A DNA stretch of 64,000 nt from NCBI GenBank assembly GCA_021081985.1, contig GCA_021081985.1_3639.1. One strand, 5' to 3'. Of this stretch, positions 9,064 through 38,700 are shown one piece after another. Under the pieces are notes generated by a model. It was not told where the DNA came from. It did no database searches and saw nothing but the letters and a program-made list of their open reading frames with translations. Each line of letters begins with the position of its first letter. Within the stretch, counting starts at the first letter, position 1. Made by a program: the position numbers and the translations under genes. The DNA is from a phage.

Positions 9064-9077
9064 TCAATCTCCCACAA

Positions 9078-10544: not shown

Positions 10545-10768
10545 GTACCCTTCGAAAGTGTTAACACACTGACTAAGGACTCCACGGCATTTCCCTTCAA
10601 AATGGTCATGATCAAGACAAGGGTTGCGAAGTGGCTCACCTAAAACAGGATCAAGACCATTCTGGTCTAAGATTAGATATTCTCTAAACTCAGCTATTTG
10701 CTTAGGATTTTTTAACCAGAGACTATCGTTGAGAGGGACGCTTACTGCTTTCTTCCTTGGCTTACGTT

Positions 10769-22548: not shown

Positions 22549-23354
22549 ATATTCGTTTGAGTTTGAACAAGCTACATGTGCCAGTTGACCATTTCACATT
22601 TAGTGGTGGTGAGGAGCAGATTAAGATCGATATGCGTCATGTTCCGCATGGTTCGATAGGTTTTGTTGATATCTTCGCTAGACTCAAGAACTCACAGGAT
22701 GTGATGTGTTTGGCACTGCTTGTTGATGCAGTTAATCGTCTTGGCAATTTGGATGTTGGTGTGGAAAAGGTTTTACACCTGCCGTACATTCCGTATGCTC
22801 GACAAGACCGAGTTATGAACCCTGGAGAATCTCTGTCGGTGAAAGTCTTTGCCACAATGATTAACTCGCTTGGTTTCCACAAAGTCATCGTCGATGATCC
22901 ACACAGTGACGTATCCGCAGCACTGATTGATAACGTGAAAATTCGTTCTCAGACTGATTTGTTCTTGAACATGAATTTTGATTTTGATCTGCTTACGGAC
23001 GAATCGCTTGTGTTGGTTGCTCCAGATGCAGGTGCACGCAAGAAGACCCAGAAGGTTGCTGATACCTTGGAACTATCTGTGGTTGAAGCAGGTAAAATCC
23101 GTGATGTGGGAACAGGGGCAATCACAGGCACAACAGTGTTTGGTGATGTTGGTGGGAAGACATGCCTGATTGTCGATGATATCTGCGATGGTGGGTTTAC
23201 GTTTACAAACTTAGCTCAAGCCTTGAAAGCTGCTGGTGCAAAACGTGTTATTTTGTATGTTACGCATGGAATTTTCTCTCGTGGGAAAGAATTTATTCTC
23301 GACGGTGGTGTTGACGAAATTTATGCATACTACGACTGGACAGAAAATTTTTAA
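22545..23354 (+). CDS. ribose-phosphate pyrophosphokinase (PRPP synthetase) family protein
   Basis: LPYIPYARQDR, VLVAPDAGA and LIVDDICDGGFT motifs. Confidence 0.8.
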   Translation: MNIRLSLNKLHVPVDHFTFSGGEEQIKIDMRHVPHGSIGFVDIFARLKNSQDVMCLALLVDAVNRLGNLDVGVEKVLHLPYIPYARQDRVMNPGESLSVKVFATMINSLGFHKVIVDDPHSDVSAALIDNVKIRSQTDLFLNMNFDFDLLTDESLVLVAPDAGARKKTQKVADTLELSVVEAGKIRDVGTGAITGTTVFGDVGGKTCLIVDDICDGGFTFTNLAQALKAAGAKRVILYVTHGIFSRGKEFILDGGVDEIYAYYDWTENF

Positions 23355-23418: not shown

Positions 23419-25134
23419 ATGCTTCACAAAGAAAGTCCATTGCTGTTTGCAGATTTTTATAAACCAAGTCACATCTCGATGTACGACAAACGTTCACAGT
23501 TTGTTCAAGACAACATGACACCACGCAATGCGAAACACTTTGTACACTTTGCAGATGATGACCATCGTGTAATGTTTGCTGGTCTTCAGGGATTTATCAA
23601 GTGGTTCCTGATTGACATGTTTAATAATAATTTCTTTGCTTTACCGAAAGAAAAGGCGATTCAGGATTACAAAGAGATTTGTGATTTGAGCATTGGGAAG
23701 GATGCTGTTGAAACTTGGGGTTTTGAGAGATTGCATGATCTTGGATATCTCCCAATTGAAATTAGAGCTTTGCCTGAAGGAACTCTTGTTCCTGTTCAGG
23801 TTCCTATGTTCACGATTCAGAACACGCACCCTGATTTTTACTGGCTGCCAAACTTCCTTGAGAGCGTGATCTCCTCGGAGACTTGGAAGACAATTACCAC
23901 GGCAACGACTTTCTGGCAATATCGTAAACTATCAGAACTGTGGGCAAAGAAAACATGTGATAACAACGATCACGTTCCTTTCCAGAACCATTGTTTTGCA
24001 TACCGTGGTGAAGCTGGAACACATGACGCAGCACAGAGCGAATTTGGGCAACTGATTAGCTCAATGGGCACAGATACAATTCCAGCGATTGTTTACGCAA
24101 ATCGCTATTACAACATGAAAGGTCGCTTTGTTGCTGGGTCTATTCCCGCATCTGAGCATAGCGTAGCGACAACGAACATTGGTTTTATTGTTGAGCGTAT
24201 CCAGCAGGAAAATCCTGACATGTCGCTTGCTGAAGCACGTTTTCGTGCTGAAGTTGAGTTCTTAAAGCGTTATGCAACAGAGATTTTTCCGTCAGGCTAT
24301 GCTTCATACGTCGCAGACAGCTATGATTTTTGGGCAATCATTACACAAGCAGCCAAAATCCTGAAAGATGAGATTATGTCTCGTGATGGCAAGCTGGTCT
24401 TCCGACCGGACAGTGGGATCCCAGAGCACATCATTGCTGGCTATCGTGTGTGCTCTCAGGAAGAATGGGCAACGGGACAGTGCTGTGATATGGATGCTGT
24501 GCTGTTTAAAAATGGCAAATATGTCACTCTGTACGAGATGTCCAGAGACACTTCTTGGATGCGAGATTCGGAAGGCAACCTCGTAGATTGGAAATCTTTG
24601 ACAGGTGATGAATTTACAAATTATCTTACCAAAGAGGAGGTTAAGGGTGCTGTACAATGCTTGTGGGAAATCTTTGGTGGTAGTGTAAACTCTTTGGGTT
24701 ACAAAGTTCTTGATAGCCATGTTGGTTTAATCTACGGAGACTCTATCACAATCTCTCGTGCTAAAGAGATCTTTGAGCGCCTTGAAGAACGAGGCTTTGC
24801 TTCCAGCAACATTGTGTTTGGTGTAGGATCTTATACAACGCAATATACAACCCGTGATTCTCTTGGGATGGCTGTAAAAGCTACTGGTGCTGTGATTGAT
24901 GGCAGACAAGTAATGGTTGTAAAAGAGCCTAAGACTGATCTTGGGAAGAAATCTGCGAAAGGTTTTGTTAAAGTTATTCGTGGTGATGATGGTGAGTTGA
25001 AGCTGGTAGATAATCTTGGTATTAATCAGGTATCTGACCCTGACAACGAGCTTAGAACAGTTTTTGTTAATGGTAAGCTGCTTGTGGATGAGGATCTTGA
25101 AGAAATTCGTCAAAGAGCTTTGTCACAGCTTTAG
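23419..25134 (+). CDS. nicotinamide phosphoribosyltransferase (NAMPT/NadV) family protein
   Basis: 571 aa; N-terminal LLFADFYKPSHISMY and overall NAMPT-like pattern; GGAGGG RBS. Confidence 0.8.
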   Translation: MLHKESPLLFADFYKPSHISMYDKRSQFVQDNMTPRNAKHFVHFADDDHRVMFAGLQGFIKWFLIDMFNNNFFALPKEKAIQDYKEICDLSIGKDAVETWGFERLHDLGYLPIEIRALPEGTLVPVQVPMFTIQNTHPDFYWLPNFLESVISSETWKTITTATTFWQYRKLSELWAKKTCDNNDHVPFQNHCFAYRGEAGTHDAAQSEFGQLISSMGTDTIPAIVYANRYYNMKGRFVAGSIPASEHSVATTNIGFIVERIQQENPDMSLAEARFRAEVEFLKRYATEIFPSGYASYVADSYDFWAIITQAAKILKDEIMSRDGKLVFRPDSGIPEHIIAGYRVCSQEEWATGQCCDMDAVLFKNGKYVTLYEMSRDTSWMRDSEGNLVDWKSLTGDEFTNYLTKEEVKGAVQCLWEIFGGSVNSLGYKVLDSHVGLIYGDSITISRAKEIFERLEERGFASSNIVFGVGSYTTQYTTRDSLGMAVKATGAVIDGRQVMVVKEPKTDLGKKSAKGFVKVIRGDDGELKLVDNLGINQVSDPDNELRTVFVNGKLLVDEDLEEIRQRALSQL

Positions 25135-26045: not shown

Positions 26046-26121
26046 GGCCCCTTAGCTCAGTGGTTAGAGCAGGTGACTCATAATCGCTTGGTCGCTGGTT
26101 AAAGTCCAGCAGGGGCCACCA
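26046..26121 (+). tRNA. tRNA-Met (anticodon CAT; could also be Ile2 or initiator)
   Basis: Manual cloverleaf: acceptor GGCCCCT/AGGGGCC, D-arm GCTC..GAGC, anticodon loop cTCATaa, T-arm GCTGG..CCAGC, encoded CCA. Confidence 0.75.
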
Positions 26122-26173
26122 AATGTGGCACACGAAATAAACTAGGTTTATTGTTTTCGGAGGAGAAAACTTA

Positions 26174-26497
26174 ATGGCTAAGAAACAGTCTGCTAAAAAG
26201 GTATCAGCTATCGAGGCGATCAAGCAACCTTTTCAGTTTGAATCAAAATCCACGCAGACACATTCTGCACCGCACGATGTGCGTCTTGGTGGCAAAACGC
26301 AAACTGTAGCAGTTCTGAAAAAACGCAAAGATGAAGACGGTAATACTGAAATGTATTATGAATCTGTGTCTCGTGTCATTGGTGGTGAAGTGATTTCTGC
26401 TTCCTATCGTATCCGTACTGGGAAAACAAAGCGTGAACGAGAAGTGAAACAGAAAACAAGCACTCCTGTAGGAAACGTTAAGAAAACTAAAAAATAA
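26174..26497 (+). CDS. hypothetical basic protein
   Basis: 107 aa, Lys-rich; GGAGGAG RBS. Confidence 0.35.
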   Translation: MAKKQSAKKVSAIEAIKQPFQFESKSTQTHSAPHDVRLGGKTQTVAVLKKRKDEDGNTEMYYESVSRVIGGEVISASYRIRTGKTKREREVKQKTSTPVGNVKKTKK

Positions 26498-26573
26498 TTT
26501 ACTGACGAGAGTGCCACCGTGAGCCAGCGTCATTAAACAAAGGGAATCACGGACATTCAGGAGGGTTGAGATT

Positions 26574-26765
26574 ATGATAGGATCTTTGCTTAAGATTGCA
26601 AGCGATGTAACAACAACGGCTGTTGAAGTGACTGCTGCGGTAACAACTCCGTTTGTTGATTTAGCATCAGATGCTATAGCAGCAGCAGACGAGATGATTT
26701 TGTCACCGACATCTGATCTTGTCCAAGATCTTTGTGATTCTATAAAAGATGCTGTAAAAGATTAA
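26574..26765 (+). CDS. hypothetical small acidic protein
   Basis: 63 aa; AGGAGGG RBS. Confidence 0.3.
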   Translation: MIGSLLKIASDVTTTAVEVTAAVTTPFVDLASDAIAAADEMILSPTSDLVQDLCDSIKDAVKD

Positions 26766-26773
26766 AATTTTTC

Positions 26774-26802
26774 TTGACATAGTTTTTGTTTTTCTGTATA
26801 GT
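26774..26802 (+). promoter_or_regulatory. sigma70-like promoter (TTGACA-17-TATAGT)
   Basis: TTGACAtagtttttgtttttctgTATAGT upstream of the ORF at 26839. Confidence 0.5.
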
Positions 26803-26838
26803 TACTTTATCAAAGCTAATTTACATAGGAGAGATTGA

Positions 26839-27486
26839 ATGTCTACTAAGATTTCCGTAACTCGTGCACTTGCTTCTATCTCTAAGATTGAAGATAAGAT
26901 CAATAAGCGCATTTATAACCTTGAATGTATTAAGATTGCAAAAGGAACTGAGAATAATTGTAAGATTCCTGGTTATATCGGCTCTGTTGATGATTTTAAG
27001 AAATCTGCGATCAACGACTATCAAAGTCTGCAAGACCTCTTGGCAGTTCGCGATGAACTGAAGGCAAAAATTGTCAAGTCTAATGCTGAGACAATTGTCA
27101 AAATTGGTAAGGTGTCTATGACAGTTGCTGAGGCAATCGAACGCAAACGGACGATTTGCTTTAAACAAGAGTTGTTAAACAAACTTTGTGCACAGCGTGC
27201 TTCTGCACAGCTTCTTCTGGCAAAAGAAGAAAAATCTCTGGAAGATAAACTTGAAAATGCCAGAGCGCCATATATCCAACGTGATAAAGCGCCAGATGCA
27301 GAGCAGATTAAGACTGTGGAAGCTCCCATTCGAATGATGAACACACCATCGGTTGTGGATCCTCTTGAACTGGCTTCTAAGATTCGTTCTCTTGAAGAAG
27401 AGATTGAAGATTTCTTGTCTAACGTTGATTTTGCGTTGTCTGAGTCAAACGCTAAGACAGAAATTGAGATTGAGCACTCTCTCTAA
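26839..27486 (+). CDS. hypothetical coiled-coil protein
   Basis: 215 aa; heptad-like charged stretches; AGGAGAG RBS. Confidence 0.4.
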   Translation: MSTKISVTRALASISKIEDKINKRIYNLECIKIAKGTENNCKIPGYIGSVDDFKKSAINDYQSLQDLLAVRDELKAKIVKSNAETIVKIGKVSMTVAEAIERKRTICFKQELLNKLCAQRASAQLLLAKEEKSLEDKLENARAPYIQRDKAPDAEQIKTVEAPIRMMNTPSVVDPLELASKIRSLEEEIEDFLSNVDFALSESNAKTEIEIEHSL

Positions 27487-27520
27487 AAGGCTCTGATAAT
27501 ATCATTATCGTTCCTTTGTT

Positions 27521-27733
27521 TTGAAATTTAAAACATTGCTTTTGATTAACGAAGTTTACATCATCTTGCCTCCTGGGGATTGGAGGTTAAATATTCCCCA
27601 CCATGTATCGTATATGTATGAGGATAATACAGAACATAGATGCAGCGAGGCACACGAAGATGCTTTGTTGTTTCCACTAAGTAAAAGTTCATACAATAAA
27701 GGTCAATGGTTAAATGTGAAAGATGAAACTTGA
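27521..27733 (+). CDS. hypothetical protein
   Basis: 70-aa ORF. Confidence 0.25.
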   Translation: MKFKTLLLINEVYIILPPGDWRLNIPHHVSYMYEDNTEHRCSEAHEDALLFPLSKSSYNKGQWLNVKDET

Positions 27734-27851
27734 AAGTTGACTCTTGAAAGATAAAATTTCGTTTATCATCTGAAATCCTTGACACAGGTTATGGCTCACA
27801 AGATATGGTCTGTAAAGCCTCAAGGCTGTTAATCGGAAGCAATGTCTTATT

Positions 27852-27926
27852 GCTCGTATAGCTCAACGGTAGAGCACCTGCCTTGTAAGCAGGGGGTTGC
27901 AGGTTCGAAACCTGCTGCGAGCACCA
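27852..27926 (+). tRNA. tRNA-Thr (anticodon TGT)
   Basis: Acceptor GCTCGTA/TGCGAGC, D-arm GCTC..GAGC, loop cTTGTaa, T-arm GCAGG-TTCGAAA-CCTGC, CCA encoded. Confidence 0.75.
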
Positions 27927-27928
27927 AT

Positions 27929-28025
27929 GCTGGGTAAGCCCTTTGGCAAGGGCGAGGATTTATAATCCTGAAAATAGACGGGCTAGCCGTTGAATACATA
28001 GGTGGTTCGATTCCATCACCCAGCC
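27929..28025 (+). ncRNA. atypical tRNA-like element (97 nt; intact acceptor, D- and T-arms, aberrant anticodon region)
   Basis: Acceptor GCTGGGT/ACCCAGC, D-arm GCCC..GGGC, T-arm GGTGG-TTCGATT-CCATC, but about 46 nt between D- and T-arms with two hairpins and no encoded CCA. Confidence 0.3.
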
Positions 28026-28226
28026 ACAAGTTTGTTTTATAGTGTATTAGCTTATATTATTCGATATAAATGCCTGATCAGCATTTGTTGTGAATGAGGC
28101 ATACAATGCGTGAGAAAGCTATCGGTGCGCAACGTTGATTTCAAACGTAGTCATGCTCGTAGAGCACCAACTGTGGAAGTTGGAGGGTGGTTGAGTAACC
28201 ATACACTATAAAGCATTCTTTAAAAT

Positions 28227-28311
28227 GGGCGGTGTCCCCACACAAGTCTTCTAAACTTGTACTTAAAAAGTGGGAAGGAAGTGAGAGGTTCGATTCCTCC
28301 ACCGTCTACCA
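28227..28311 (+). ncRNA. atypical tRNA-like element (T-arm, acceptor and CTTCTAA anticodon-like hairpin but no D-arm)
   Basis: GGTTCGATTCC T-loop, acceptor GGGCGGT/ACCGTCT plus ACCA, hairpin CAAGT-cttctaa-ACTTG; does not fold as a canonical cloverleaf by hand. Confidence 0.3.
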
Positions 28312-28387
28312 GATTAACCCCAACTTGAGAATCGTCAGCGCGGCTCGTAAGACCCACTCTATAGGTTCTCTACCTGGGGTGCTTATT

Positions 28388-28464
28388 GCACGGTTGCCGG
28401 AATTTGGTTACGGGTCTGTCTGCAAAACGGATATATGTCGGTTCAAGTCCGACACCGTGCTCCA
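28388..28464 (+). tRNA. tRNA-Cys (anticodon GCA)
   Basis: Acceptor GCACGGT/ACCGTGC, loop cTGCAaa, T-arm GTCGG-TTCAAGT-CCGAC, CCA encoded. Confidence 0.7.
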
Positions 28465-28501
28465 AACTTTCAATTTCTTGGCAAATATGTTAAAATACCA
28501 C

Positions 28502-28530
28502 TTGACAGATATGTTTTTATTTGATAATAT
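28502..28530 (+). promoter_or_regulatory. sigma70-like promoter (TTGACA-17-TAATAT)
   Basis: TTGACAgatatgtttttatttgaTAATAT upstream of ATG 28551. Confidence 0.45.
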
Positions 28531-28550
28531 CATTAAGTGGGGTTTTTAAA

Positions 28551-28898
28551 ATGGCTACTAAGCAGCTTACAAAACGTAGAAGAGGAAAAGGTCGTCCTCT
28601 GAAAGAGGAATCTAATGCAATTCAGTTAGAGAAAAATATCCTAGATTTGAAAACGAATCTGATTGCAATGATTCCTGAAGCTCATCAGGTTCTTAGGGAT
28701 TTGATGAAGAATGTGAATACAAAAGACAATATCAGAGAAAATATCGCTCGTTATGTTATTGAGAAAGGTGAGCAGATGCTTTCTGATTACTTTGATGAGG
28801 AAAACGAAGAGTTACTCGAAAAAGATAACTCAGAAAAAGCGCCTATTAAGGCAGCCAAACCATTCTCGACGGATATTGTTCAATTCAAACAAGGTTAA
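28551..28898 (+). CDS. hypothetical protein (start at internal ATG of track ORF 28521..28898)
   Basis: MATKQLTKRRRGKGRP...; promoter-like element immediately upstream. Confidence 0.35.
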   Translation: MATKQLTKRRRGKGRPLKEESNAIQLEKNILDLKTNLIAMIPEAHQVLRDLMKNVNTKDNIRENIARYVIEKGEQMLSDYFDEENEELLEKDNSEKAPIKAAKPFSTDIVQFKQG

Positions 28899-28899
28899 T

Positions 28900-28989
28900 G
28901 TGTCGTTAGACCGTAGGGGTAGCGGGGGAGACTGTAAATCTCCTGTCTCGAAAGGGACTCGGGTAGTTCGACTCTATCACGGCACACCA
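28900..28989 (+). tRNA. tRNA-Tyr (anticodon GTA), long variable arm
   Basis: Acceptor GTGTCGT/ACGGCAC, loop cTGTAaa, variable-arm hairpin GTCTC-gaaa-GGGAC, T-arm GGTAG-TTCGACT-CTATC, CCA encoded. Confidence 0.7.
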
Positions 28990-29057
28990 ACTAAATCTGT
29001 ACTGGCTTTGATGTGTGACGATACCCTCCAATCGTGGTTGTTGGGTCAGTACAGTTT

Positions 29058-29133
29058 GGGAGTGTAGATCAGTTAGTAGATCGCTCGACCGATAATCGAG
29101 AGGACGTAGGGGCAGAGCCTACCACTCCCACCA
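29058..29133 (+). tRNA. tRNA-Ile-like (anticodon GAT) with non-canonical T-loop and C33; possibly degenerate
   Basis: Acceptor GGGAGTG/CACTCCC, D-arm GATC..GATC, loop ccGATaa, T-arm GTAGG-GGCAGAG-CCTAC. Confidence 0.4.
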
Positions 29134-29138
29134 AATAT

Positions 29139-29213
29139 GCATCCATAGTTTAATTGGGAAAACTACAGCCTTCCAAGCTGAAGTCGAGGGTTCGATGCCC
29201 TCTGGATGCTCCA
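29139..29213 (+). tRNA. tRNA-Gly (anticodon TCC)
   Basis: Acceptor GCATCCA/TGGATGC, D-arm GTTT..AAAC, loop cTTCCaa, T-arm GAGGG-TTCGATG-CCCTC, CCA encoded. Confidence 0.65.
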
Positions 29214-29338
29214 GTTAAAAGATGTCAATGAAATCCGCTTGGGTCAACTGAAGACCGTAACAAATTCCATGGGGTTGTGTTTGCGGTCCAACCCTAGACA
29301 TCTTCTATCTTTAGTAGAAGGCTTTAATACGGACGAGT

Positions 29339-29569
29339 ATGATGGTTTCTAAATTAATCATAACAAGGCATCATAATGCTAAAGAAATAGAGATTGTGAA
29401 TGCTGCTGGCACTCTTGTGCTAAAAGTTGGTAAAGACTGTCCTTTTGAATTGTGCCAGAAGGAACTTTTAAGTTTGTGCGGTTTCAGGTTTAAACAGATT
29501 ATCTTTGAAAATGCTTTTCAATATTCAGACTTAAACCAGTACATTATATCTAGGCTTGATCCTGCATGA
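29339..29569 (+). CDS. hypothetical protein embedded in tRNA array
   Basis: 76-aa ORF. Confidence 0.3.
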   Translation: MMVSKLIITRHHNAKEIEIVNAAGTLVLKVGKDCPFELCQKELLSLCGFRFKQIIFENAFQYSDLNQYIISRLDPA

Positions 29570-30123
29570 GATACTTGAAATATTTATCTTGGATCCTGTT
29601 AGCACCTCTTGATCCAATTATGTCGGCTCTCTGTGTTATTCTGGCTCCTTTTGTTGTTCCGTTCTATAATGAGAAGACAGGGCATCTACCCTATATTTTC
29701 AGGTGGATGGAAACATATGATAATCCTATAGACGGTGACAGAGGACACATAGAGAGATGGGAAGAAGTCCGTAAAATAGGAAGTTTTGGTGTTTACCTAC
29801 AACGAGTTGCTTGGTTGTGGAGAAATAAAGCCTACAATTTTTCCTATCACGTACTTGGACGTGAAATCGCATCTGTGACAAAGTGGAAAGGAAACATCCA
29901 TGTAAGCTCTGATGTGGAGGATAATCAACAAGGCTATTTGTTGATGTGGAATGACAATGCGTGGGGTGTATTCGCGTTTGTCCCGTCTTTTAGATTGTTT
30001 GGAAAACAATTTTACTGGCGAATTTATGTCGGTTGGAAACTGAAGAGTGTGGTTCCTGAAGACAGAGCTTTTTCAAGAGAGAGGGTGATGTTGGCATTTT
30101 TCATAAGTCCTTTCCGAAAATAG
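29566..30123 (+). CDS. hypothetical protein (hydrophobic N-terminus, Trp-rich) embedded in tRNA array
   Basis: 185-aa ORF, ATGA overlap with upstream ORF. Confidence 0.4.
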   Translation: MRYLKYLSWILLAPLDPIMSALCVILAPFVVPFYNEKTGHLPYIFRWMETYDNPIDGDRGHIERWEEVRKIGSFGVYLQRVAWLWRNKAYNFSYHVLGREIASVTKWKGNIHVSSDVEDNQQGYLLMWNDNAWGVFAFVPSFRLFGKQFYWRIYVGWKLKSVVPEDRAFSRERVMLAFFISPFRK

Positions 30124-30129
30124 TTTTTA

Positions 30130-30211
30130 ATGAGAGTAGCGTAACTTCACTGGGTGAAGGCTGGCCTCCAAAACCAGTGACTAAGAGGTTCGATTCCTCA
30201 CTCTCGTGCCA
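30130..30211 (+). tRNA. tRNA-like gene, possible tRNA-Trp (anticodon CCA), irregular D-region
   Basis: Acceptor ATGAGAG/CTCTCGT, loop cTCCAaa, T-loop TTCGATT, CCA encoded; D-region forms a tight 6-bp hairpin instead of a normal D-arm. Confidence 0.35.
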
Positions 30212-30212
30212 A

Positions 30213-30288
30213 AGGGGATTAGCATAGTGGCCTAATGCAACGGGCTTTGACCCCGTGATCGGTTGTTCGAATCAACCATCCCCTGCCA
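30213..30288 (+). tRNA. tRNA-Gln (anticodon TTG)
   Basis: Acceptor AGGGGAT/ATCCCCT, D-arm GCAT..ATGC, loop cTTTGac, T-arm GGTTG-TTCGAAT-CAACC, CCA. Confidence 0.75.
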
Positions 30289-30297
30289 AGTTAAAAC

Positions 30298-30387
30298 GGA
30301 GAAGCAAATCGATTGGCGACGAAACCACATTGGAAATGTGCTGACTGGTAAAACGGCTTGAGAGTTCGATTCTCTCCTTCTCCACCA
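30298..30387 (+). tRNA. tRNA-Ser (anticodon GGA), type II
   Basis: Acceptor GGAGAAG/CTTCTCC, loop tTGGAaa, T-arm GAGAG-TTCGATT-CTCTC, CCA; variable arm pairs weakly. Confidence 0.5.
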
Positions 30388-30401
30388 GTTTTTAAGGATT
30401 T

Positions 30402-31145
30402 ATGTATGCACTCTCCCCAAGAAAAAAAAATGGAAAACAGATATTTAATTTGTTGAAAAGCGGAAAAGGCTTCTCAAACCCGCTTCAATCAGGTCTTTCT
30501 CTGGTTGGTGGTAAAGTAAGTAGTCTATCTTCTTTATCTTCCTCTATTTCTTCGGTAACTAACCCAGCTATAAAGGCTCAATTAGCTGCCGCAGGTTTGA
30601 CAACTGGCGTTTTATCAAATTTTACTTCGTCTCTTGGTTCTGTTACAAGCACGACAAAAACGCTTGTTGATTATGGTCAGAAATCTGTTGAAGAGTTCTC
30701 CCAAAGAATGCACGCAGCGAGTAATTATATGAGTACTCTGAGCAGAATGGGAGAAAAGACAAGTTGTTCAATATTTAGTGACGTTATGTCTGTAGCCACT
30801 GATTTAGGTAAGAAAGCTATGGATGCCGTTAATTCCGCGATGGATGCGGTGAACGATGTTATGTCTCAATTGCAAGATGCAATAAATAAGGGTTTGAATA
30901 CAATATCTAGTTTGGCGAGTAAAGCTGTCTCAGCGATAAACAAAGGGATCCAGAAAATGTCTGAGTATGCTAGCCAAGTGACAAAGATGATTGAAGATGA
31001 AGCAAAGAAGTTGGCAGACTACTTAAAGACAAGTGCTGAAGGATTTCTCGCAGATATCCTACCTGATTGGTTTAACGATTCTTGTAAATCTGGTATAGTT
31101 GACCAGATTGCTACACCAGAGATGAAAGAAGTTCTTAAAAAGTAA
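30402..31145 (+). CDS. hypothetical Ser/Thr-rich helical protein embedded in tRNA array
   Basis: 247-aa ORF between tRNA genes; start may be internal. Confidence 0.4.
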   Translation: MYALSPRKKNGKQIFNLLKSGKGFSNPLQSGLSLVGGKVSSLSSLSSSISSVTNPAIKAQLAAAGLTTGVLSNFTSSLGSVTSTTKTLVDYGQKSVEEFSQRMHAASNYMSTLSRMGEKTSCSIFSDVMSVATDLGKKAMDAVNSAMDAVNDVMSQLQDAINKGLNTISSLASKAVSAINKGIQKMSEYASQVTKMIEDEAKKLADYLKTSAEGFLADILPDWFNDSCKSGIVDQIATPEMKEVLKK

Positions 31146-31147
31146 TT

Positions 31148-31241
31148 GGAAGATTAACCCTAATTTGGTAAGGGGTCTCCCTGCTAAGGAGATAGTAACC
31201 CAGAAATGGGTGTGCCAGTTCAAGTCTGGCATCTTCCTCCA
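31148..31241 (+). tRNA. tRNA-Ser (anticodon GCT), type II
   Basis: Acceptor GGAAGAT/ATCTTCC, loop cTGCTaa, variable-arm hairpin ACCCA-gaaa-TGGGT, T-arm GCCAG-TTCAAGT-CTGGC, CCA. Confidence 0.65.
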
Positions 31242-31320
31242 CTGTATGTCAAGGCTCAGATTTCTTCGGACCTGGGCGTTCGCCTTTGTTGGGTGTATAT
31301 TCTCGGCAGAGGCTATCTTT

Positions 31321-31409
31321 GGAGGCTGGGGTGCATGGTGCACAAGCTGGTTTGAACCCAGTCCCGCTGTAGAGATATGGTGACAGTTCGATTCTGTCAG
31401 CCTCCTCCA
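31321..31409 (+). tRNA. tRNA-Ser (anticodon TGA), type II
   Basis: Acceptor GGAGGCT/AGCCTCC, loop tTTGAac, T-arm GACAG-TTCGATT-CTGTC, CCA. Confidence 0.6.
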
Positions 31410-31632
31410 AGTTATCTTTAATGTAGCTTGTTTAGTTGCTTGGTGTGATTTTTCGGTGGATGGCTGCAACCATCTTATCGATACCCCAGAGCAGTCCGCT
31501 CTTTACTGGCGTAAGCCAAACACTTATGATGGTCATGTAATCGTAATCTATCATTAGTGTGCTCTCCCTGGAGAGCTGTTGCGTATAGCTAATTATTGTG
31601 TGAGTAATTAGCTATTTTAAAGATAATTTGAC

Positions 31633-31709
31633 GGATCTGTAGCCAAATGGTTTAAGGCACTCGACTTTTAATCGAGAGATTGTTGGTTCGAATCCAACCA
31701 GATCCACCA
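31633..31709 (+). tRNA. tRNA-Lys (anticodon TTT)
   Basis: Acceptor GGATCTG/CAGATCC, D-arm GCC..GGC, loop cTTTTaa, T-arm GTTGG-TTCGAAT-CCAAC, CCA. Confidence 0.8.
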
Positions 31710-31718
31710 AAATATTCA

Positions 31719-31809
31719 GGTTCTTTGACCGAGTGGTCGATGGTGACGGCCTGTTAAGCCGTTGGGAGGAATCTCCCCACCGAAGGTTCGAATCCTTCAG
31801 GAACCGCCA
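31719..31809 (+). tRNA. tRNA with anticodon GTT (Asn codons) but type-II body and G73 discriminator
   Basis: Acceptor GGTTCTT/AGGAACC, D-arm ACCG..TGGT, anticodon stem ACGGC/GCCGT with loop cTGTTaa, variable-arm hairpin GGGAG-gaat-CTCCC, T-arm GAAGG-TTCGAAT-CCTTC, disc G, CCA. Confidence 0.5.
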
Positions 31810-31893
31810 ATTCTTGACTTAATCAAGTCACAGATATCACCTAGCCAGCGATACCAGTTAGTAGATTCTGGGACAATTAAAATCTACATTTCT

Positions 31894-31971
31894 CTGTCCG
31901 TAGCGCAGCTTGGGTAGCGCGGGTCACTTGGGATGATCAGGTCGTTGGTTCAAATCCAACCGGACAGACCA
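31894..31971 (+). tRNA. tRNA-Pro (anticodon TGG)
   Basis: Acceptor CTGTCCG/CGGACAG, D-arm GCGC..GCGC, loop cTTGGga, T-arm GTTGG-TTCAAAT-CCAAC, CCA. Confidence 0.75.
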
Positions 31972-32013
31972 ATAAACATATACATATCAAAGCAGAAATG
32001 TACAGAGGATACC

Positions 32014-32205
32014 ATGTTAACAGTTAAAGTCGTATCTCCAAATGATGAACAAATTTTTTGTGGGAAAATTGTTGGGTATTGTGCTCATCAAAAGTCTATA
32101 GCTATTTCAGGTATTGACCAAAAAGTGTTTTTGTCTGAGGATCAGACCGCTTATGTGATCAATGCCAATGGAAAAACTATTTCTGTGTATCGTGGAAAAC
32201 CGTAA
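32014..32205 (+). CDS. hypothetical small protein (internal ATG of track ORF 31933..32205, which overlaps tRNA-Pro)
   Basis: MLTVKVVSPNDEQ...; AGGA RBS 5 nt upstream. Confidence 0.3.
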   Translation: MLTVKVVSPNDEQIFCGKIVGYCAHQKSIAISGIDQKVFLSEDQTAYVINANGKTISVYRGKP

Positions 32206-32219
32206 CTCTTAATATAAAT

Positions 32220-32296
32220 GGGCGATTGATGGAATTGGTATACATGTCAGGCTTAGAACCTGAATTTTGGGGGTTCGAGTCCCTCATCGCCTACCA
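32220..32296 (+). tRNA. tRNA with anticodon TAG (Leu codon CUA) but short variable arm (type-I body)
   Basis: Acceptor GGGCGAT/ATCGCCT, anticodon stem TCAGG/CCTGA with loop cTTAGaa, 5-nt variable loop, T-arm GGGGG-TTCGAGT-CCCTC, A73, CCA. Confidence 0.5.
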
Positions 32297-32301
32297 ATTA
32301 T

Positions 32302-32377
32302 GTGACGGTAACTCAGTTGGTAGAGTGCCTTGCTGAAGACTAGGTGGTCACAGGTTCGAATCCTGTCCGTCACACCA
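32302..32377 (+). tRNA. tRNA-Phe (anticodon GAA)
   Basis: Acceptor GTGACGG/CCGTCAC, D-arm ACTC..GAGT, loop cTGAAga, T-arm ACAGG-TTCGAAT-CCTGT, CCA. Confidence 0.7.
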
Positions 32378-32627: not shown

Positions 32628-32703
32628 TGCGAGTTTGAAGTCTGGTGACTTCGCTGGTCTCATAAGCCAGTCCAGATTGGTTCGATCCCAATACTCGCAA
32701 CCA
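32628..32703 (+). tRNA. tRNA-Met/Ile2 (anticodon CAT), second CAT tRNA
   Basis: Acceptor TGCGAGT/ACTCGCA, D-arm GAAG..CTTC, loop cTCATaa, T-arm ATTGG-TTCGATC-CCAAT, CCA. Confidence 0.65.
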
Positions 32704-32834
32704 GAATTAAAGTGGACACTAAGGAAGGTCGTGGCTGAGTAAACGGTAAGACACTCTCGACATGTAAAGGTTCCTTCGCCACTTTTCTCAAATAACTATA
32801 ATAATAATCCAATCAATCTCCTCTCCTATGCCTA

Positions 32835-32860
32835 ACCCCGCCTCTTGCGGGGTTTTTCTT
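32835..32860 (+). terminator. intrinsic terminator closing the tRNA array
   Basis: AACCCCGCctcttGCGGGGTT followed by TTTTTCTTT. Confidence 0.6.
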
Positions 32861-32906
32861 TATGTGCTAGTCTTTACGCATCTTGTTTTGTACTTAAGGA
32901 TAGCTA

Positions 32907-34267
32907 AGATGTTGCATGTTTTCAAAAAAGAAGATTTTCAAAGAGAGTATGACATTTTGTGCTCTTTTATACCAAAAGGTGTTTATGATTTATTGTCAAA
33001 GCTGGATGTTAAGATAGCTGGCGGTGCAATAACCTCTTTGTTCTCTAATAGTAAAGTCAACGATCTTGATTTGTATTTCCCATCTTGGGAAAGCCTTGAG
33101 ATATTCATTGCGTACATGATGGATAAAAGACTCTTGTCAGGGAAATATGATTTGTCTAAGAAAACAAATGGCTGGGCGTCAGATCAAAAAATAGCATTTA
33201 GGCATTTCTATAAACTTGATCACGGTGATCCAGCATTTTCAAATTTTACAGATCCTCTTTCTATAGGTAGAGAATATGACAATGAATACGATTATTTATG
33301 TGATGAAGATGATAATTTGCCAACCATGAAAAAGGTTGGTGTGACAGATAAGAGTGTGATGTTTTACTTTGGACAAGAGCCTGTCTTTCAATGTGTGGCT
33401 GTGGATGTGTTCAAAACAACAGAAGACATCTTTAGCAAATTTGATTTTACAATAAATATGGGTGCTTTTAACTTCAAAGATGGTGTGTGGGAATTTAATA
33501 GCAATTTCTTAAAACATATTGCTCAAAGAGTTTTGGTTGTAAATCATAAAACTGAATACCCGATTATGTCACTTTTGAGATCTGAAAAATACAAATCTCG
33601 TGGCTATACAATTTCGAAAAAAGAGACAATGAAACTGGCTATGACCATTGCTAACCTTCAGATAGAAGGTTGGGAATCGGCAAAGTCACATCTTAGCGGG
33701 ATGTACGGAATGAAACTGTCAGATATTTTTGATGAGACAAAACAGTTTTCACTTGATTCTTTGGTTGAGTGCCTAGACAGATTAGAATCTTGTTGCCAGC
33801 AGGTAGACAAAAATGTTACCCCTGTGCAACCGTTGCCGTTTAATGATGTATCTAAAGTTAATATGTTTAATATTTTTCAAAGATTAAGAAAAGCAACAGG
33901 CAGGAAATACTTTACAAAACTATATGGGGTTTGTCCTGCTGAAGTTTTCTATCTTATGATGCCAACAAAAGATACACATTATGTTGGGCTTTACAAAGAA
34001 GATATAGCAAATAATTTTCCCACTCTCAGACTTTATGTTGATGAGAAGAAGGCAAGAGAATATTACGAATACCTGTGTGAGTGTGGTAAGACAGATGGTT
34101 ATGGATGCCTAATGTATAAACCTGGGGCAGTTCTCTTAGATGTCTCAATAAGTGATCCATCTAAGATGCAATACGATATCATAACTGATGAGATTAATAT
34201 TTATGAAAACAGAAAAACAACATTGAAAATTGAAAACATTATTGTGTGTGATGGGGATATATCATGA
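32907..34267 (+). CDS. class II nucleotidyltransferase, CCA-adding enzyme / poly(A) polymerase-like (start at internal ATG; track ORF 32828 spans the terminator)
   Basis: KIAGGAITSLFSNSKVNDLDLYF (GG..x10..DxD pol-beta NTase motif) and FDFTINMGA (DxTIN-like motif) resemble tRNA nucleotidyltransferase head-domain motifs; follows the tRNA array. Confidence 0.5.
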
Positions 34268-34665
34268 TATGGTTTAAAACGCTGTTAACTTTCTTTTCTA
34301 GGAACATAAAACAGATAGGTGTTGTTTTGTGTTGTGTGGTTCTCGTCTGTGGTATCTTGGGGATAAAACATTGGTATAATGACCAGTTAACATCGTCCTA
34401 CAACGCAGGTGTCAGCGACACGGATCTTAAATGGGAGAGGATTAACCAGCAAGTTAGAGATCACAACAACGCTTTTAAAAAACAACAGCAGGATAAGATC
34501 GATGAGTTGTCAACCATGTTGGTGAAAGAGAGAGAAATTAATAACCAACTGAAAGAAGACCTTGATAAAAAGGTTAAAAGTTATAGCAAAACACAAGCAG
34601 GAAAACAGGTTTGCCTCGATAACCAGTTTGTTGATATCTATAACGACAGTTTGGGGTCTAAATGA
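34264..34665 (+). CDS. i-spanin (Rz-like inner-membrane spanin)
   Basis: N-terminal TM helix (IGVVLCCVVLVCGILGI) then charged coiled-coil; ATGA-coupled to downstream lipoprotein. Confidence 0.55.
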   Translation: MIWFKTLLTFFSRNIKQIGVVLCCVVLVCGILGIKHWYNDQLTSSYNAGVSDTDLKWERINQQVRDHNNAFKKQQQDKIDELSTMLVKEREINNQLKEDLDKKVKSYSKTQAGKQVCLDNQFVDIYNDSLGSK

Positions 34666-34955
34666 AAAAGTATGTTATCATGGTTCCTTTTCTATTGTTT
34701 ATGTTAACAGGGTGCACTTCACCACCTGAGAGAGTTGTTCCTGTTGCAAAAGAGATCATAATAAGCGATATCCTAGCAAGACCACCCGCTGAAGCTATGA
34801 TACCACCGAAAGAACCTGAAAAATTGCCAGGTGGTCTTAGTAATGCAGATGCTATCGAGGTGATTAAGAAAAACAACATTAAGGCTGCTGAAGATCGTAT
34901 GAAATTAAGAACGTTACAGCAGTATGTAAAGACAATATTTTCTTCAGACAAATAG
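34662..34955 (+). CDS. o-spanin (Rz1-like outer-membrane lipoprotein)
   Basis: Signal peptide with lipobox LTGC, Pro-rich mature part, 97 aa. Confidence 0.6.
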   Translation: MKKYVIMVPFLLFMLTGCTSPPERVVPVAKEIIISDILARPPAEAMIPPKEPEKLPGGLSNADAIEVIKKNNIKAAEDRMKLRTLQQYVKTIFSSDK

Positions 34956-34963
34956 TTGACAAT

Positions 34964-34995
34964 GCCCTTATTTAATGATAAGGGCTTTATTTTTA
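34964..34995 (+). terminator. intrinsic terminator after spanin genes
   Basis: GCCCTTAtttaatgaTAAGGGC followed by TTTATTTTTAT. Confidence 0.55.
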
Positions 34996-35050: not shown

Positions 35051-36397
35051 TTGAGTAAAGTATTTGGACCTGCCAGTCCTAAACAAAAAATGATTTTGGA
35101 GAGTAAAGCCCAAATTCTAATAATTGGCGGGGCCGCCGGGTGTTTGTCTAAAGACCACGAGGTGTTGACACCATCTGGCTGGATTAAGATATCAGAATGG
35201 TCAGGACAGGACATTCTGCAATATGATAAAGCCACTGGGGAGGCTAAATTTATCCCTCCTTTAGAGTTTGTTAAACTCCCTTGTGAAAAACTTACAAGAA
35301 TAGAAGGTAATGGTATTTGTCAAGAGCTATCTGACGAACATACTGTGATTTATAAACCAGACTATAAATCACAGCCAAGAACACTTTCTTTTTCTGAAGT
35401 GGCAGAAAGACATAACAACTCTGTTAAAAAAGGTTGGACAGGTAAGTTCATAACTACATTTAACTATGATGGGCCTGGGATAGACATGACAGAAGGGGAA
35501 TTAAGGCTTCAGGTTGCTGTCATGGCTGATGGGAGAGTTGTTAAAGAAGGGAAAGATAATTATACACAGATGCGCTTTGCTAAAAAGCGTAAATATGACC
35601 GCTTAATCGAACTTTGTAAAAAGTTTGGATTAAGATATGAAGATAGAGGATCAAAACCCAGTGAAAGATATACCACTGGGGAACAGTACGAGGTCATTGT
35701 ATGGCCTAAATATCCTGATAAAAAATTTACAGAGAAATACTATCAGTGTTCAAATGAACAACTGGAGATAATACTTGATGAGATTTTTCATTGGGATGGT
35801 TCTTTTTGTAAGCCATATGGCGGTAAAACACATAATAGCTTTACAGGTAGATATTTTACTGCTCATAAGACGAACGCTGATTTTGTTCAGTTTATAGGAT
35901 CTTCTCTTGGTTATAATACCACCATAAGCCATGATACAAGAAGTGGAAAGGACAGTTATACTGTTAATATTATGGCTAGAGGAAAAGGATTAAGGTCACT
36001 GGCTAATAAAGACAGAAAAGCTGAGTTTAAAGAGTTTATACCTACGGATGGGTTTAAATACTGCTTTGTAACACAAACAGGTTTCTTTGTTACCAGACTA
36101 GAAGATTGTGTGGTTGTCACTGGGAATAGTGGAAAATCATATCTCCTACAATTGATGCCGCTTGCTTATGTCGATGACCCGCAGACAGCATGTATAATGT
36201 TTCGTAGGACAACACCTCAATTGACAGGTGCAGGTGGACTTTTTGATACAGCGAAAAGTATTTATTTGCAACTCGATAAGGAATGGAAGCCGAAGTTCAG
36301 GGAGAAAGCTCTGGAAGCAATTTTCCCATCTGGGGCAAAGGTGTTGTGGAGACACATGGAGTATGAGAATAACAAATTAGATCATCAGGGTGAATAG
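35051..36397 (+). CDS. terL: terminase large subunit, 5' exon (ATPase N-terminal part) containing an intein in the Walker A loop
   Basis: TTG start with GGAGG RBS; IIGGAAG/[intein]/SGKSYLLQ reconstitutes a GxxGSGKS P-loop; ORF reaches a stop at 36395-36397, probably intron-derived. Confidence 0.65.
   Translation: MSKVFGPASPKQKMILESKAQILIIGGAAGCLSKDHEVLTPSGWIKISEWSGQDILQYDKATGEAKFIPPLEFVKLPCEKLTRIEGNGICQELSDEHTVIYKPDYKSQPRTLSFSEVAERHNNSVKKGWTGKFITTFNYDGPGIDMTEGELRLQVAVMADGRVVKEGKDNYTQMRFAKKRKYDRLIELCKKFGLRYEDRGSKPSERYTTGEQYEVIVWPKYPDKKFTEKYYQCSNEQLEIILDEIFHWDGSFCKPYGGKTHNSFTGRYFTAHKTNADFVQFIGSSLGYNTTISHDTRSGKDSYTVNIMARGKGLRSLANKDRKAEFKEFIPTDGFKYCFVTQTGFFVTRLEDCVVVTGNSGKSYLLQLMPLAYVDDPQTACIMFRRTTPQLTGAGGLFDTAKSIYLQLDKEWKPKFREKALEAIFPSGAKVLWRHMEYENNKLDHQGE
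35141..36127 (+). mobile_element. intein with LAGLIDADG-like endonuclease domain in terL P-loop (about 329 aa)
   Basis: Starts CLSKDHEVLT (block A-like), ends CVVVTGN followed by +1 Ser; internal LQVAVMADGRVV and ILDEIFHWDGS motifs; boundary codons TGT 35141 and AAT 36125 checked. Confidence 0.6.
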
Positions 36398-37659
36398 CTT
36401 GCCCTTCGTGCCTATAACGGTGGAACTCCCTATGGGAAAATACCGTGCCACAGAATATGGAAATATAAAATCTGGGTGTAACGACTATCTCCGATGAGTG
36501 TAGGAGAGTAGAATCACAAGCGATTGGTGATCCAAACGGCACGCCAAGGATGGAAGATATAGTCTGTTCCACATGGAAACATGTGGCGGGTGTTTTAGCA
36601 CACCGCCTCAGTGTAGCGAACTGAGGGGACAATAAGTTGCAGTATACCTTTATAGGTTTTGATGAGGGTTGGTATTAGCTCTCTTTAAACCTCCCTAATT
36701 GTCGGGGAAACCTTTATTGTTTACATAACCAAGCAAATGTGGTAACATGTTTGTGGCCTACACTAACTATGTAGGGTATGGTAATATCATGTAAAATTAG
36801 GTAATCCGCAGCGAAGCATCCCTATGGGATGAACGTTCAACGACTATCGCTTACGGGCGTTAGGGCCAAGCGGTGAGGGAAACCTCCAGTCTTTCAGACT
36901 GCCGAAATGGGAGGATATTTGCGTAATAATATTAAAAAATGTGTTGACTGCCATAGAGAACTTCCTCTTGATAAATTTTTTCTTTCATCAAAAAGTAGTG
37001 ATGGATATTCTGGAGCTTGTAAAGAATGCTACATGTATTATAGACTTAACAACTCCAGAAAGAATAAGGATATGATTAAGAAAGAGGATGCTGCCATGTT
37101 TATACAAGATTTGGTATCATCTGGTGAACTTTTCGAATGCAAAACTTGCCGTAAGAAGTTTTTAGCTGATAATTTTTATACTAAGAGAGATTATGGTAAA
37201 GTGTATCTTGCAACAAATAGATGTAAAAGATGTGAAAAGTTTTACCAAATAGAGAGAAAGTTTGGCATCTCTGAGGAATATTACTTTTCAATGTTGGAAA
37301 GGCAGGGGTTTAAGTGCGAGATATGTAAAATACCTTTGGAAGATTATAAAAATCAAGGGTATAGAGATTTTTTCTCCGTAGATCATGACCATAAGACAGG
37401 GAAGATTAGAGGTTTGTTATGCGATAAGTGTAACAGGGCTTTGGGATTTTTCGGAGAAAATGAGGAAACACTTTTAAATGCCGCAGAATATATACGCAAA
37501 TATAAGATATAGTCTGGTCTGCATGGTGACATGCAGCAGCACGTAGTGGTGCGGGATAAGAGTAGCGATCTTATCTGAACAAAAACGACACAATTCACAT
37601 GGTCACAGATAGATTATCTGATATCTCGTCTACGTTCAAACTCTAAATATCCGAGCAGG
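36398..37659 (+). mobile_element. putative group I intron in terL carrying an HNH homing-endonuclease ORF (boundaries approximate)
   Basis: 1.26-kb interruption between two terL reading frames; contains aattgtcggggaaacc (P-like, 36667-36682), gggtatggtaata (36774-36786), aatccgcagcg (Q-like, 36803-36813), gttcaacgactat (R-like, 36835-36847) resembling conserved group I core elements recalled from the Tetrahymena and T4 introns. Confidence 0.55.
36907..37512 (+). CDS. HNH (His-Me finger, Endo VII-like) homing endonuclease encoded within the terL intron
   Basis: 201 aa; several CxxC pairs and VDHDHKTGKIRGLLCDKCNRALGFF matching the DHDH...RGLLC..CN motif of T4 endonuclease VII-type nucleases. 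Confidence 0.65.
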   Translation: MGGYLRNNIKKCVDCHRELPLDKFFLSSKSSDGYSGACKECYMYYRLNNSRKNKDMIKKEDAAMFIQDLVSSGELFECKTCRKKFLADNFYTKRDYGKVYLATNRCKRCEKFYQIERKFGISEEYYFSMLERQGFKCEICKIPLEDYKNQGYRDFFSVDHDHKTGKIRGLLCDKCNRALGFFGENEETLLNAAEYIRKYKI

Positions 37660-38700
37660 ATGGTTATCTCTTGTAACCCTGATCCAGATCATAAGATTAA
37701 AGAGTTGATTTCTTGGTATTTAGACGATGAGGGGTATCCTATACCTGAACGTGACGGGGTGATTAGATGGTTTATAAGACGTGACGGGGAGTTTATCTGG
37801 GGTGAATCAGAGCAAGAATTAATTGAAAAGTATTGGGATGGCAAGGATGAGAAAAGAAAGCCTAAACCACTTTCATTTTCCTTCATTTCCGCAACAATAT
37901 TCGATAATCCTCCCATGCTGGAGAATAACCCAGATTATCTAGCATTCCTTGAAGGTCTTCCAGAGGTAGAAAAAGCCCAGTTATTGCATGGAAACTGGAA
38001 CGCAAGACCTGAAGGGGCAAACTATTTCCAGAGATCTTATTTAAAAGAGGTTCCCTGCTTACCTCTCGGTGTTGTATCTGTTCGTCCGTATGATAAAGCA
38101 GGTACAGAAAGAACATCTGGAAACAGATATCCTGACTTTACAGCATCTGTTAAGGTAAGTAAAGACAATGATGGTTTTTACTACTTGTCTGGTGATTATT
38201 GTCCTGAATTTTTTGATGATGGTAGATATTCGACTCAAACGCAGGGAAGATTCTGTAAAAAAGCTGGGGAACGTGATGTTATCATTAAGAAACAGGCTTA
38301 TTTTGATGGTGATGATGTCACCATAATTTTCAGTGTTGACCCAGGACAAGCAGGAATAAGTGAATTTTTAACAAGCTCCCGTGAACTAATAGCGGAAGGG
38401 TTTACAGTAGAAAAAGATCCTACACCAAGCAATAAATCAAAATTAACACGATTCACACCGTTTGCAAAACTTGCTCAAGCAGGTATGGTGAGAATAGTTC
38501 GTGATAGTTTTGATCCTAAAACTTATGAAGCCCTTATGACAGAGCTTGAAAAGTTCAATGGGGAAAGGAGTACTACGACAAGAAAAGACGATTGGGTCGA
38601 CGCCATTTCTTCTGGGATAAATTATCTTGAAAAAGAAGAAATAGTCAAACCTGTTGTTATTCCAAAAATTGTAGCTCCTACCTTGTATAAAAGAATATAA
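37660..38700 (+). CDS. terL: terminase large subunit, 3' exon (Walker B and nuclease domain); true exon start may lie slightly upstream
   Basis: ELISWYLDDEG Walker-B-like (hhhhDDE) soon after start; acidic residues consistent with RNase H-like nuclease domain; track coordinates used. Confidence 0.65.
   Translation: MVISCNPDPDHKIKELISWYLDDEGYPIPERDGVIRWFIRRDGEFIWGESEQELIEKYWDGKDEKRKPKPLSFSFISATIFDNPPMLENNPDYLAFLEGLPEVEKAQLLHGNWNARPEGANYFQRSYLKEVPCLPLGVVSVRPYDKAGTERTSGNRYPDFTASVKVSKDNDGFYYLSGDYCPEFFDDGRYSTQTQGRFCKKAGERDVIIKKQAYFDGDDVTIIFSVDPGQAGISEFLTSSRELIAEGFTVEKDPTPSNKSKLTRFTPFAKLAQAGMVRIVRDSFDPKTYEALMTELEKFNGERSTTTRKDDWVDAISSGINYLEKEEIVKPVVIPKIVAPTLYKRI

Follow-up and report, generated by a model that had tools for sequence, protein, structure and literature searches.

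The stretch analysed here, a window of 64,000 nucleotides of phage DNA (NCBI GenBank assembly GCA_021081985.1, contig GCA_021081985.1_3639.1), carries a gene for a putative nucleotidyltransferase (NTase) just downstream of an array of tRNA genes. This raises the question of whether the phage makes its own enzyme for maturing or repairing the CCA ends of its tRNAs, as a preliminary description of the locus had proposed. Our analyses point to a different answer. The window protein, encoded at 32909-34267 on the plus strand (452 aa plus stop), belongs by sequence to the known Gad2 family (Pfam PF26128), and we consider it probable that this gene encodes an active, template-independent phage NTase that counters Gabija-type defence. 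Gabija is composed of GajA (an OLD-family ATPase-Toprim nuclease) and the GajB helicase, and the Gad2 proteins of SPbeta-like Bacillus phages are required for escape from it.

A tblastn search of 50,697 phage records matched 141 of them, with one match falling on a coding sequence annotated as Gad2 in Bacillus phage SPbetaL6. BLASTP against this Gad2 gave two alignments, one spanning residues 148-314 (36% identity, E 1e-30) and one spanning residues 10-59 (42%, E 9e-10). A bridging homologue (P0060), which aligns with Gad2 from end to end at 70% identity, matched the window protein at E 1e-32. All of the 90 homologues found in a search of 5.8 billion proteins carried the precomputed family PF26128, which the contig look-ups name 'Gad2', and family membership was read from these labels together with the BLASTP comparison. 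Scans of the window protein against Pfam (a copy without PF26128), NCBIfam and PADLOC gave no match, and PHROGs returned only families of unknown function plus one weak 'nucleotidyltransferase' match. When a profile of 57 members was run against 1.84 billion proteins, representatives of 6261 clusters at 50% identity were recovered at E<=1e-3 (756 at E<=1e-30). Counted in such clusters the Gad2 family is therefore large, with thousands of them, far more than first reported. These representatives and the 90 homologues (down to E 1e-290) mark the open reading frame as a genuine gene and not a chance one. The closest counterparts were Av05_004 of Escherichia phage Av-05 (Vequintavirinae, Avunavirus), annotated as 'hypothetical protein' and 95% identical in DNA to the window gene, and the homologue found in phage TH18 and related phages (87% identical); the first 20 kb of the window were 96% identical to TH18.

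The Gad2 of phage SPbetaL7 has the Swiss-Prot entry GAD2_BPSP7. This phage becomes Gabija-sensitive on deletion of gad2, Gabija defence is abolished by a homologue from Brevibacillus, and the SPbetaL7 protein is toxic in bacteria and was predicted with AlphaFold to contain an NTase domain (bioRxiv 10.1101/2023.05.01.538930). Our literature search found no paper joining Gabija with CCA-adding and none on PF26128, and the EVADES preprint does not mention Gad2. The window protein and the Gad2 proteins of SPbetaL6 and SPbetaL7 are phage-encoded members of the same Pfam family that share the invariant AGGAITS..ND-D-Y, DFT..MGA and S..R..KY..GY.I motifs and the same layout, an NTase head and neck followed by an alpha/beta C-terminal domain. 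They differ in that their catalytic regions are only about 36-42% identical, their C-terminal domains are only weakly alike and Gad2 lacks an insertion of about 85 residues (60-147) present in the window protein. Moreover, the window gene follows a tRNA array and is joined to a spanin operon, whereas Gad2 lies in a dedicated anti-Gabija locus; the host of the window phage is Gram-negative, and the anti-Gabija activity of its protein is putative.

The AlphaFold model of the window protein had a mean predicted local distance difference test score (pLDDT) of 87 and a predicted template modelling score of 0.86. According to this model, residues 1-297 (32909-33799, plus strand) form a divergent class II head and neck, of the CCA-adding enzyme and poly(A) polymerase type, in which the GG..DxD metal site and the Asp of motif B are intact. 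In Foldseek comparisons with the PDB, the top 42 matches were class II CCA-, A- and CC-adding enzymes and E. coli poly(A) polymerase, except for TENT5A at rank 21 (E 6e-4); the best match was 5hc9 (E 5e-6). The structure prediction and comparison thus bore out the CCA-enzyme-like head of the preliminary description at the level of fold. An hhalign comparison of the family with four class II sequences (E. coli Cca, Av-05 Cca, a jumbo-phage Cca and E. coli PcnB) agreed with it (probability 85%, P 7e-7), pairing motif A (AGGAITS-x-DLD with VGGAVRD-x-DRD) and the D-[FL]-T-I-N of motif B. With E. coli Cca as the only partner, the family gave no significant alignment (probability 0.6), and a profile search of PDB sequences returned nothing at E<=10. 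The TENT5/FAM46 non-canonical poly(A) polymerases are eukaryotic, show no sequence similarity and differ in their C-terminal architecture.

Motif A (33020-33070, plus strand) reads A37-G38-G39, twelve residues and then D52-L-D54-L, so that the GG and DLDL previously noted are present with a spacing of 12 residues and not 10. The DFTIN motif noted with them was also found (D179-F-T-I-N183; 33443-33457, plus strand) and aligns with the class II motif B (RRDLTIN). A neck helix, T215..P218..S221..R224..K227-Y228..G232-Y233..I235 (33551-33613, plus strand), aligns with the region of motif D. Twelve residues were invariant in the 57 members (A37, G38, G39, T42, D52, D54, Y56, D179, R224, K227, Y228 and I235), among them the metal-binding carboxylates of motif A, and G38, G39, D52, D54 and D179 were also invariant in a 54-sequence alignment that included Gad2 itself. 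With class II CCA-adding enzymes and poly(A) polymerase I (PF01743; e.g. PDB 3aql, 3h37, 1miv and 5hc9) the window protein therefore has in common the fold of the head and neck, the GG..DxD of motif A, the motif B Asp in D-[FL]-T-I-N, a motif C-like L....R and a basic/aromatic LR..[RK][FY] helix. Between motifs A and B lies the helical insertion already mentioned (residues 60-147; 33086-33349, plus strand), which alignment and pLDDT indicate to be partly acidic and disordered, variable in length and confined to the Vequintavirinae-type clade. Within it, a strongly acidic loop of low confidence, GREYDNEYDYLCDEDDNLPT (33266-33328, residues ~120-140), differs greatly in length and sequence among the Vequintavirinae homologues.

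The C-terminal domain (residues 316-452; 33854-34264, plus strand) has the split-beta-sheet fold of ADP-ribosyltransferases (ART; SCOP d.166.1), for which BC2332-like proteins, Tpt1/KptA, PARP, toxins of the diphtheria and pertussis types, Arr and the C-domain of IcmQ were compared. Its catalytic H-Y-E or R-S-E residues are not conserved, no column past residue 280 is invariant or nearly so across the family, and within the Vequintavirinae-type clade only an R and an A are invariant. An active ART was considered and rejected as unsupported, since no catalytic residues are conserved. Unlike the active members of the superfamily, the domain is probably a binding module, for a substrate or another ligand. 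When compared in hhalign, the C-terminal regions of the window clade and the Gad2 clade matched weakly, over 41 columns, with P 6e-4 and a probability of 29%. Genes related to ADP-ribosylation lie within 3 kb of the Gad2-like gene in two metagenomic phage contigs unrelated to each other, namely two ADPrib_exo_Tox genes at 9015-10632 (minus strand) of locus L013 and a NADAR gene at 8889-9404 (plus strand) of locus L017, which is worth recording because of the ART fold of the Gad2-like C-terminal domain.

Is the window protein nevertheless the CCA-adding enzyme of this phage? It is not, because the 3' CCA is gene-encoded in all 14 phage tRNAs and every close relative carries a canonical Cca. The PF01743 (PolyA_pol) hidden Markov model, the check suggested for the head domain, had no match to the window protein at E<=10 nor to five other members at E<=1. 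In class II enzymes the arginines of the motif B RRD contact the ribose and triphosphate of the incoming nucleotide, and the EDxxR of motif D is the amino-acid template for CTP and ATP. The window protein reads K-F-D179 where these enzymes have R-R-D, with the Asp alone conserved; the E-D of EDxxR falls opposite a gap and its Arg opposite the nearly invariant S221, while the LR..[RK][FY] helix that follows is kept. As judged from these alignments, then, the protein lacks the residues with which CCA enzymes contact the ribose and template the base. It also differs from these enzymes in having no HD domain, and the ART-fold domain stands in place of the all-helical body and tail that hold the tRNA. 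The canonical tRNA nucleotidyltransferase of Av-05 (Av05_0068, 414 aa) aligns with E. coli Cca along 97% of its length at 45% identity, and a canonical Cca also occurs in TH18 and its relatives and in Seunavirus and Mydovirus phages with a Gad2-like gene. No canonical cca was found within the window, and the cca region of Av-05 had no nucleotide match there; in TH18, cca sits about 8 kb past the left edge of the window. That the protein is a genuine CCA-adding enzyme for the maturation or repair of the neighbouring phage tRNAs, as its motif A- and B-like residues, its best fold matches and its place after the tRNA array had made appealing, is thus hardly credible, and a misannotation as a second phage CCA-adding enzyme can be corrected. 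The alternative raised with it, a different pol-beta NTase, came closer to the truth in that the protein is of the Gad2 family; the kinds named, CD-NTase and toxin-type enzymes, showed no convincing similarity. Av-05 encodes a further 353-aa 'nucleotidyltransferase', Av05_0062 (6056-7117 of locus L010; 34222-35283 of the record), about 2 kb from its canonical cca.

We then compared the surroundings of the family in 79 viral loci, 69 of them outside the Vequintavirinae. The order tRNA array, NTase gene, two spanin genes and terminase gene is kept in Avunavirus, Seunavirus, Mydovirus and Henunavirus, and in these four Vequintavirinae genera the Gad2-like gene is always the first after the tRNA array. 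Elsewhere a tRNA gene lay within 1 kb at only 3 of the 69 loci, and none was near the gene in SPbetaL6, Pseudoalteromonas J2-1, jumbo phage CBB or Vibrio phage R16F. Adjacency to tRNA genes as a trait of the whole family was accordingly rejected; being confined to one subfamily, it may reflect vertical inheritance. A second kind of neighbour recurs among large phages. An Rnl1 RNA ligase and an AAA_33 kinase flank the Gad2-family gene in L013, and an Rnl2-type ligase abuts it in L015; L019 holds Rnl1, AAA_33, an Rnl2-type ligase, a DNA ligase overlapping the start of the gene and two Metallophos genes, and L020 has Metallophos, Thg1, RlaP and a canonical PolyA_pol near it. RlaP is also near the gene in L017 and L043, as are an HD protein, Rnl1 and a polynucleotide kinase/phosphatase in jumbo phages. 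In Qingdaovirus-type phages a DNA ligase gene adjoins it (L006, L033, L034 and L036) or lies 2.1 kb off (L035), and a DNA ligase adjoins the homologue in L051 as well. As raw counts from single-sequence seeds, 21 of the 69 non-Vequintavirinae loci had such a repair-type neighbour and 48 had none, the latter including those that encode the 400-aa Gad2-like proteins of temperate-type contigs. The association with genes of nucleic-acid-end enzymes is real in several large-phage lineages and is not universal, and such neighbours hint at a nucleic-acid end as substrate. Genes of the family thus recur beside those of T4-type tRNA healing-and-sealing (Pnkp and Rnl1) and of RlaP/Thg1-like NTases, and the window phage has an Rnl1-like gene; the family has no homology to any of these, and the association is missing at most loci. 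The ligase gene of the window, of the T4 Rnl1 type, lies at 19389-20321 on the minus strand (PF09511, E 4e-18), so the phage possesses a tRNA healing-and-sealing kit at least in part.

Few anti-defence proteins are predicted to be enzymes, and Gad2 is among them. Because all family members share G38, G39, D52, D54, D179, R224, K227 and Y228, we infer that the window protein would be an active enzyme carrying out template-independent nucleotidyl transfer. In enterobacterial hosts it could counter Gabija-type (OLD-family) defence by such transfer and not by mere binding of the defence complex, and the likeliest acceptor would be the 3'-OH end of a nucleic acid, either RNA/tRNA or DNA. The class II core without templating residues, the fusion to an ART-fold domain and the recurrent neighbours in large phages (tRNA arrays, RNA and DNA ligases, polynucleotide kinases, Thg1-like and RlaP genes) suggest that candidate substrates can be narrowed to nucleic-acid 3' ends, and a non-canonical role at such ends may be a lead for how Gad2 works. 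Gabija has been described as sensing DNA ends, guarding RecBCD and blocking end-joining and circularisation (PMC12904381), and P2 OLD, a relative of Gabija, cleaves tRNA anticodon stems (PMC12445682). We also counted as anti-defence surroundings a NARP1-like pair 8 kb upstream of the Gad2-like gene, in which a Prs-like gene (PF00156/PF14572/PF13793) at 22545-23354 (plus strand) stands beside a Nampt/NAPRTase-like gene (PF04095) at 23419-25134 (plus strand). This Pfam signature is that of NARP1 (Adps and Namat), an anti-defence operon for NAD+ reconstitution (10.1101/2024.02.11.579819), and in Erwinia phages a pangenome study found gad2 to co-occur with the related NARP2, not with NARP1 (PMC13480210).

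Several observations weigh against an anti-Gabija enzyme in this phage. Activity against Gabija has been demonstrated for Bacillus and Brevibacillus members only, which are ~30-36% identical to the window protein in the catalytic region, and between the two clades the C-terminal domains are as weakly matched as given above. A February 2026 review describes how Gad2 works as 'yet to be elucidated' (PMC12904381), and the target of the transfer is one that we purely infer. Furthermore, the stop codon of the NTase gene overlaps the start of a spanin gene and the gene lies shortly before the terminase gene, which suggests co-expression with the late genes for lysis and packaging; an anti-defence gene is not usually expressed in this way. 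Finally, of the 69 viral loci outside the Vequintavirinae, about 70% are without a repair-type neighbour.

The acceptor and the mode of action can be read in other ways. A non-canonical NTase that repairs or remodels RNA or tRNA 3' ends, re-extending or capping damaged ends alongside polynucleotide kinase/phosphatase (PNK), RNA ligases, Thg1-like enzymes and Cca, would use the ART-fold domain, whose matches include Tpt1/KptA, as an RNA-binding module. It is a modified form of the CCA idea, compatible with membership of the Gad2 family, and we regard it as possible but rather doubtful. Its nearest folds are all RNA 3'-end extenders (CCA-, A- and CC-adding enzymes, poly(A) polymerase and TENT5), the gene comes first after the tRNA array in four genera, and it abuts Rnl1 and the AAA_33 kinase in L013 or the Rnl2-type ligase in L015 and is found a few kb from Rnl1, Rnl2 and PNK (L019), Thg1, RlaP and PolyA_pol (L020), RlaP (L017 and L043) or Rnl1 and PNK (jumbo phages). 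The Rnl1-like ligase of the window itself, the toxicity of overexpressed family members and the cutting of tRNA by the OLD-family nuclease of P2 (PMC12445682) are in line with it too. However, relatives already possess a full canonical Cca and the phage tRNAs encode their CCA, neither the templating EDxxR nor the RRD arginines are present, a helical body and tail for the acceptor and T-arm of a tRNA are missing, and the tRNA adjacency, which among the other viral loci extends to the same 3 of 69, fits vertical inheritance in a single subfamily. SPbeta-type members have no RNA-repair neighbours, and GajA reportedly cuts DNA and not RNA. The stronger statement that Gad2-family enzymes are dedicated RNA/tRNA 3'-end repair or capping NTases, with a CCA-like core and a Tpt1-like ART-fold RNA-binding domain, partnering kinase/phosphatase and ligase genes, we consider unlikely. 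If it were true, the damage that matters from Gabija-type OLD-family nucleases or other defences would be to tRNA or RNA, as recently shown for P2 OLD, and Gad2 would gain its first mechanism.

A terminal transferase that adds nucleotides to the 3' ends of phage DNA, masking them from Gabija or aiding end-joining and circularisation with a ligase, would agree with the DNA-end sensing ascribed to Gabija and its block of end-joining and circularisation (PMC12904381). It would also agree with the DNA ligase genes next to the homologues of Qingdaovirus-type phages, L051 and L019 and with the Metallophos phosphoesterases that are frequently adjacent, and loss of the RRD arginines, which in class II enzymes contact the ribose of the NTP, could relax the preference for ribo- over deoxynucleotides. 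We nevertheless give this idea a low probability, given that the close structural relatives all act on RNA, that most loci have no ligase neighbour and that ligase adjacency could be plain clustering of genes for nucleic-acid metabolism. The pol-beta fold, the toxicity of overexpressed members and the fact that Gad1 acts by binding could likewise be accommodated by a signalling NTase (CD-NTase or cGAS-like), a toxin-type NTase (MenT/AbiEii or MNT) or an inactive scaffold that inhibits by binding alone. This appears very improbable: PADLOC gave no match, cGAS was reached by Foldseek only at E 0.14-0.75 with probability <0.1, neither fold nor sequence similarity to MenT/AbiEii or MNT/ANT toxin- or resistance-type NTases was found, and carboxylates invariant in 57 sequences argue against a dead scaffold. 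A template-independent Gad2-family enzyme directed against Gabija-type defence remains the reading that we prefer.

With regard to the borders of the gene, the ATG at 32909 agrees with the annotation of Av-05 and with the N-termini of all aligned homologues, and a ribosome-binding site, AAGGA, was identified from the sequence at 32896-32900 (plus strand), 8 nt upstream. The end at 34267 had been placed correctly in the preliminary description, whose start at 32907 lies 2 nt out of frame. The longest frame, starting at 32828, was discarded, as it overlaps a terminator hairpin and fits neither the Av-05 annotation nor the N-termini of the homologues. This hairpin, intrinsic-terminator-like with 8 bp, 6 of them GC, and followed by a T-run (32834-32854, plus strand), closes the tRNA region 55 nt before the ATG, confirming that the gene sits directly after the terminator of the tRNA cluster. 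Downstream, an Rz-like spanin gene (34264-34665, plus strand) has a start that overlaps the NTase stop codon (ATGA), and it is followed by a second spanin gene, for an Rz1-like lipoprotein (34662-34955, plus strand), and another terminator-like hairpin (34964-34985, plus strand). The two hairpins bracket a unit made of the NTase gene and both spanin genes.

The tRNA array (26046-32377, plus strand) comprises 14 tRNAs detected by ARAGORN, the last of which is a tRNA-Phe ending at 32377, together with extra tRNA-like matches to Rfam. Five sequences on the plus strand were recognised by Rfam and not by ARAGORN. The one at 29058-29130 scored 53 bits on the Rfam tRNA model and has the anticodon GAT, followed by CCA, and that at 27929-28025 scored 33 bits, slightly over the 29-bit gathering threshold. 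The other three (32629-32698, 30134-30205 and 28226-28308) matched the tRNA-Sec model only, under its gathering threshold. The sequence at 32629-32698, which precedes the terminator, carries CAT in its anticodon loop and an AACCA tail, and its acceptor stem is imperfect. A tRNA-Thr with the anticodon UGU is encoded at 27852-27926 (plus strand), and phage tRNAs of this kind, tRNA-Thr(UGU), reportedly save cells from P2 OLD, a nuclease that cleaves tRNA (PMC12445682).

Beyond the spanin genes, the gene for the terminase large subunit (35051-38697, plus strand) is interrupted twice, unlike that of phage 4MG, in which TerL is continuous. Residues 1-30 of TerL are encoded at 35051-35140, residues 31 to ~122 at 36128-36394, where a stop follows, and residues 130-499 at 37588-38697. 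The first insertion is in-frame, 987 nt long (329 aa) and located inside Walker A (GGAAG|CLSKDHEV...VVVTGN|SGKS); it is intein-like and has no Pfam match. The second, of ~1.19 kb (36395-37587), contains an open reading frame of the Endonuclease VII/HNH type at 36907-37512 (PF02945, E 5e-20) and is group I intron-like.

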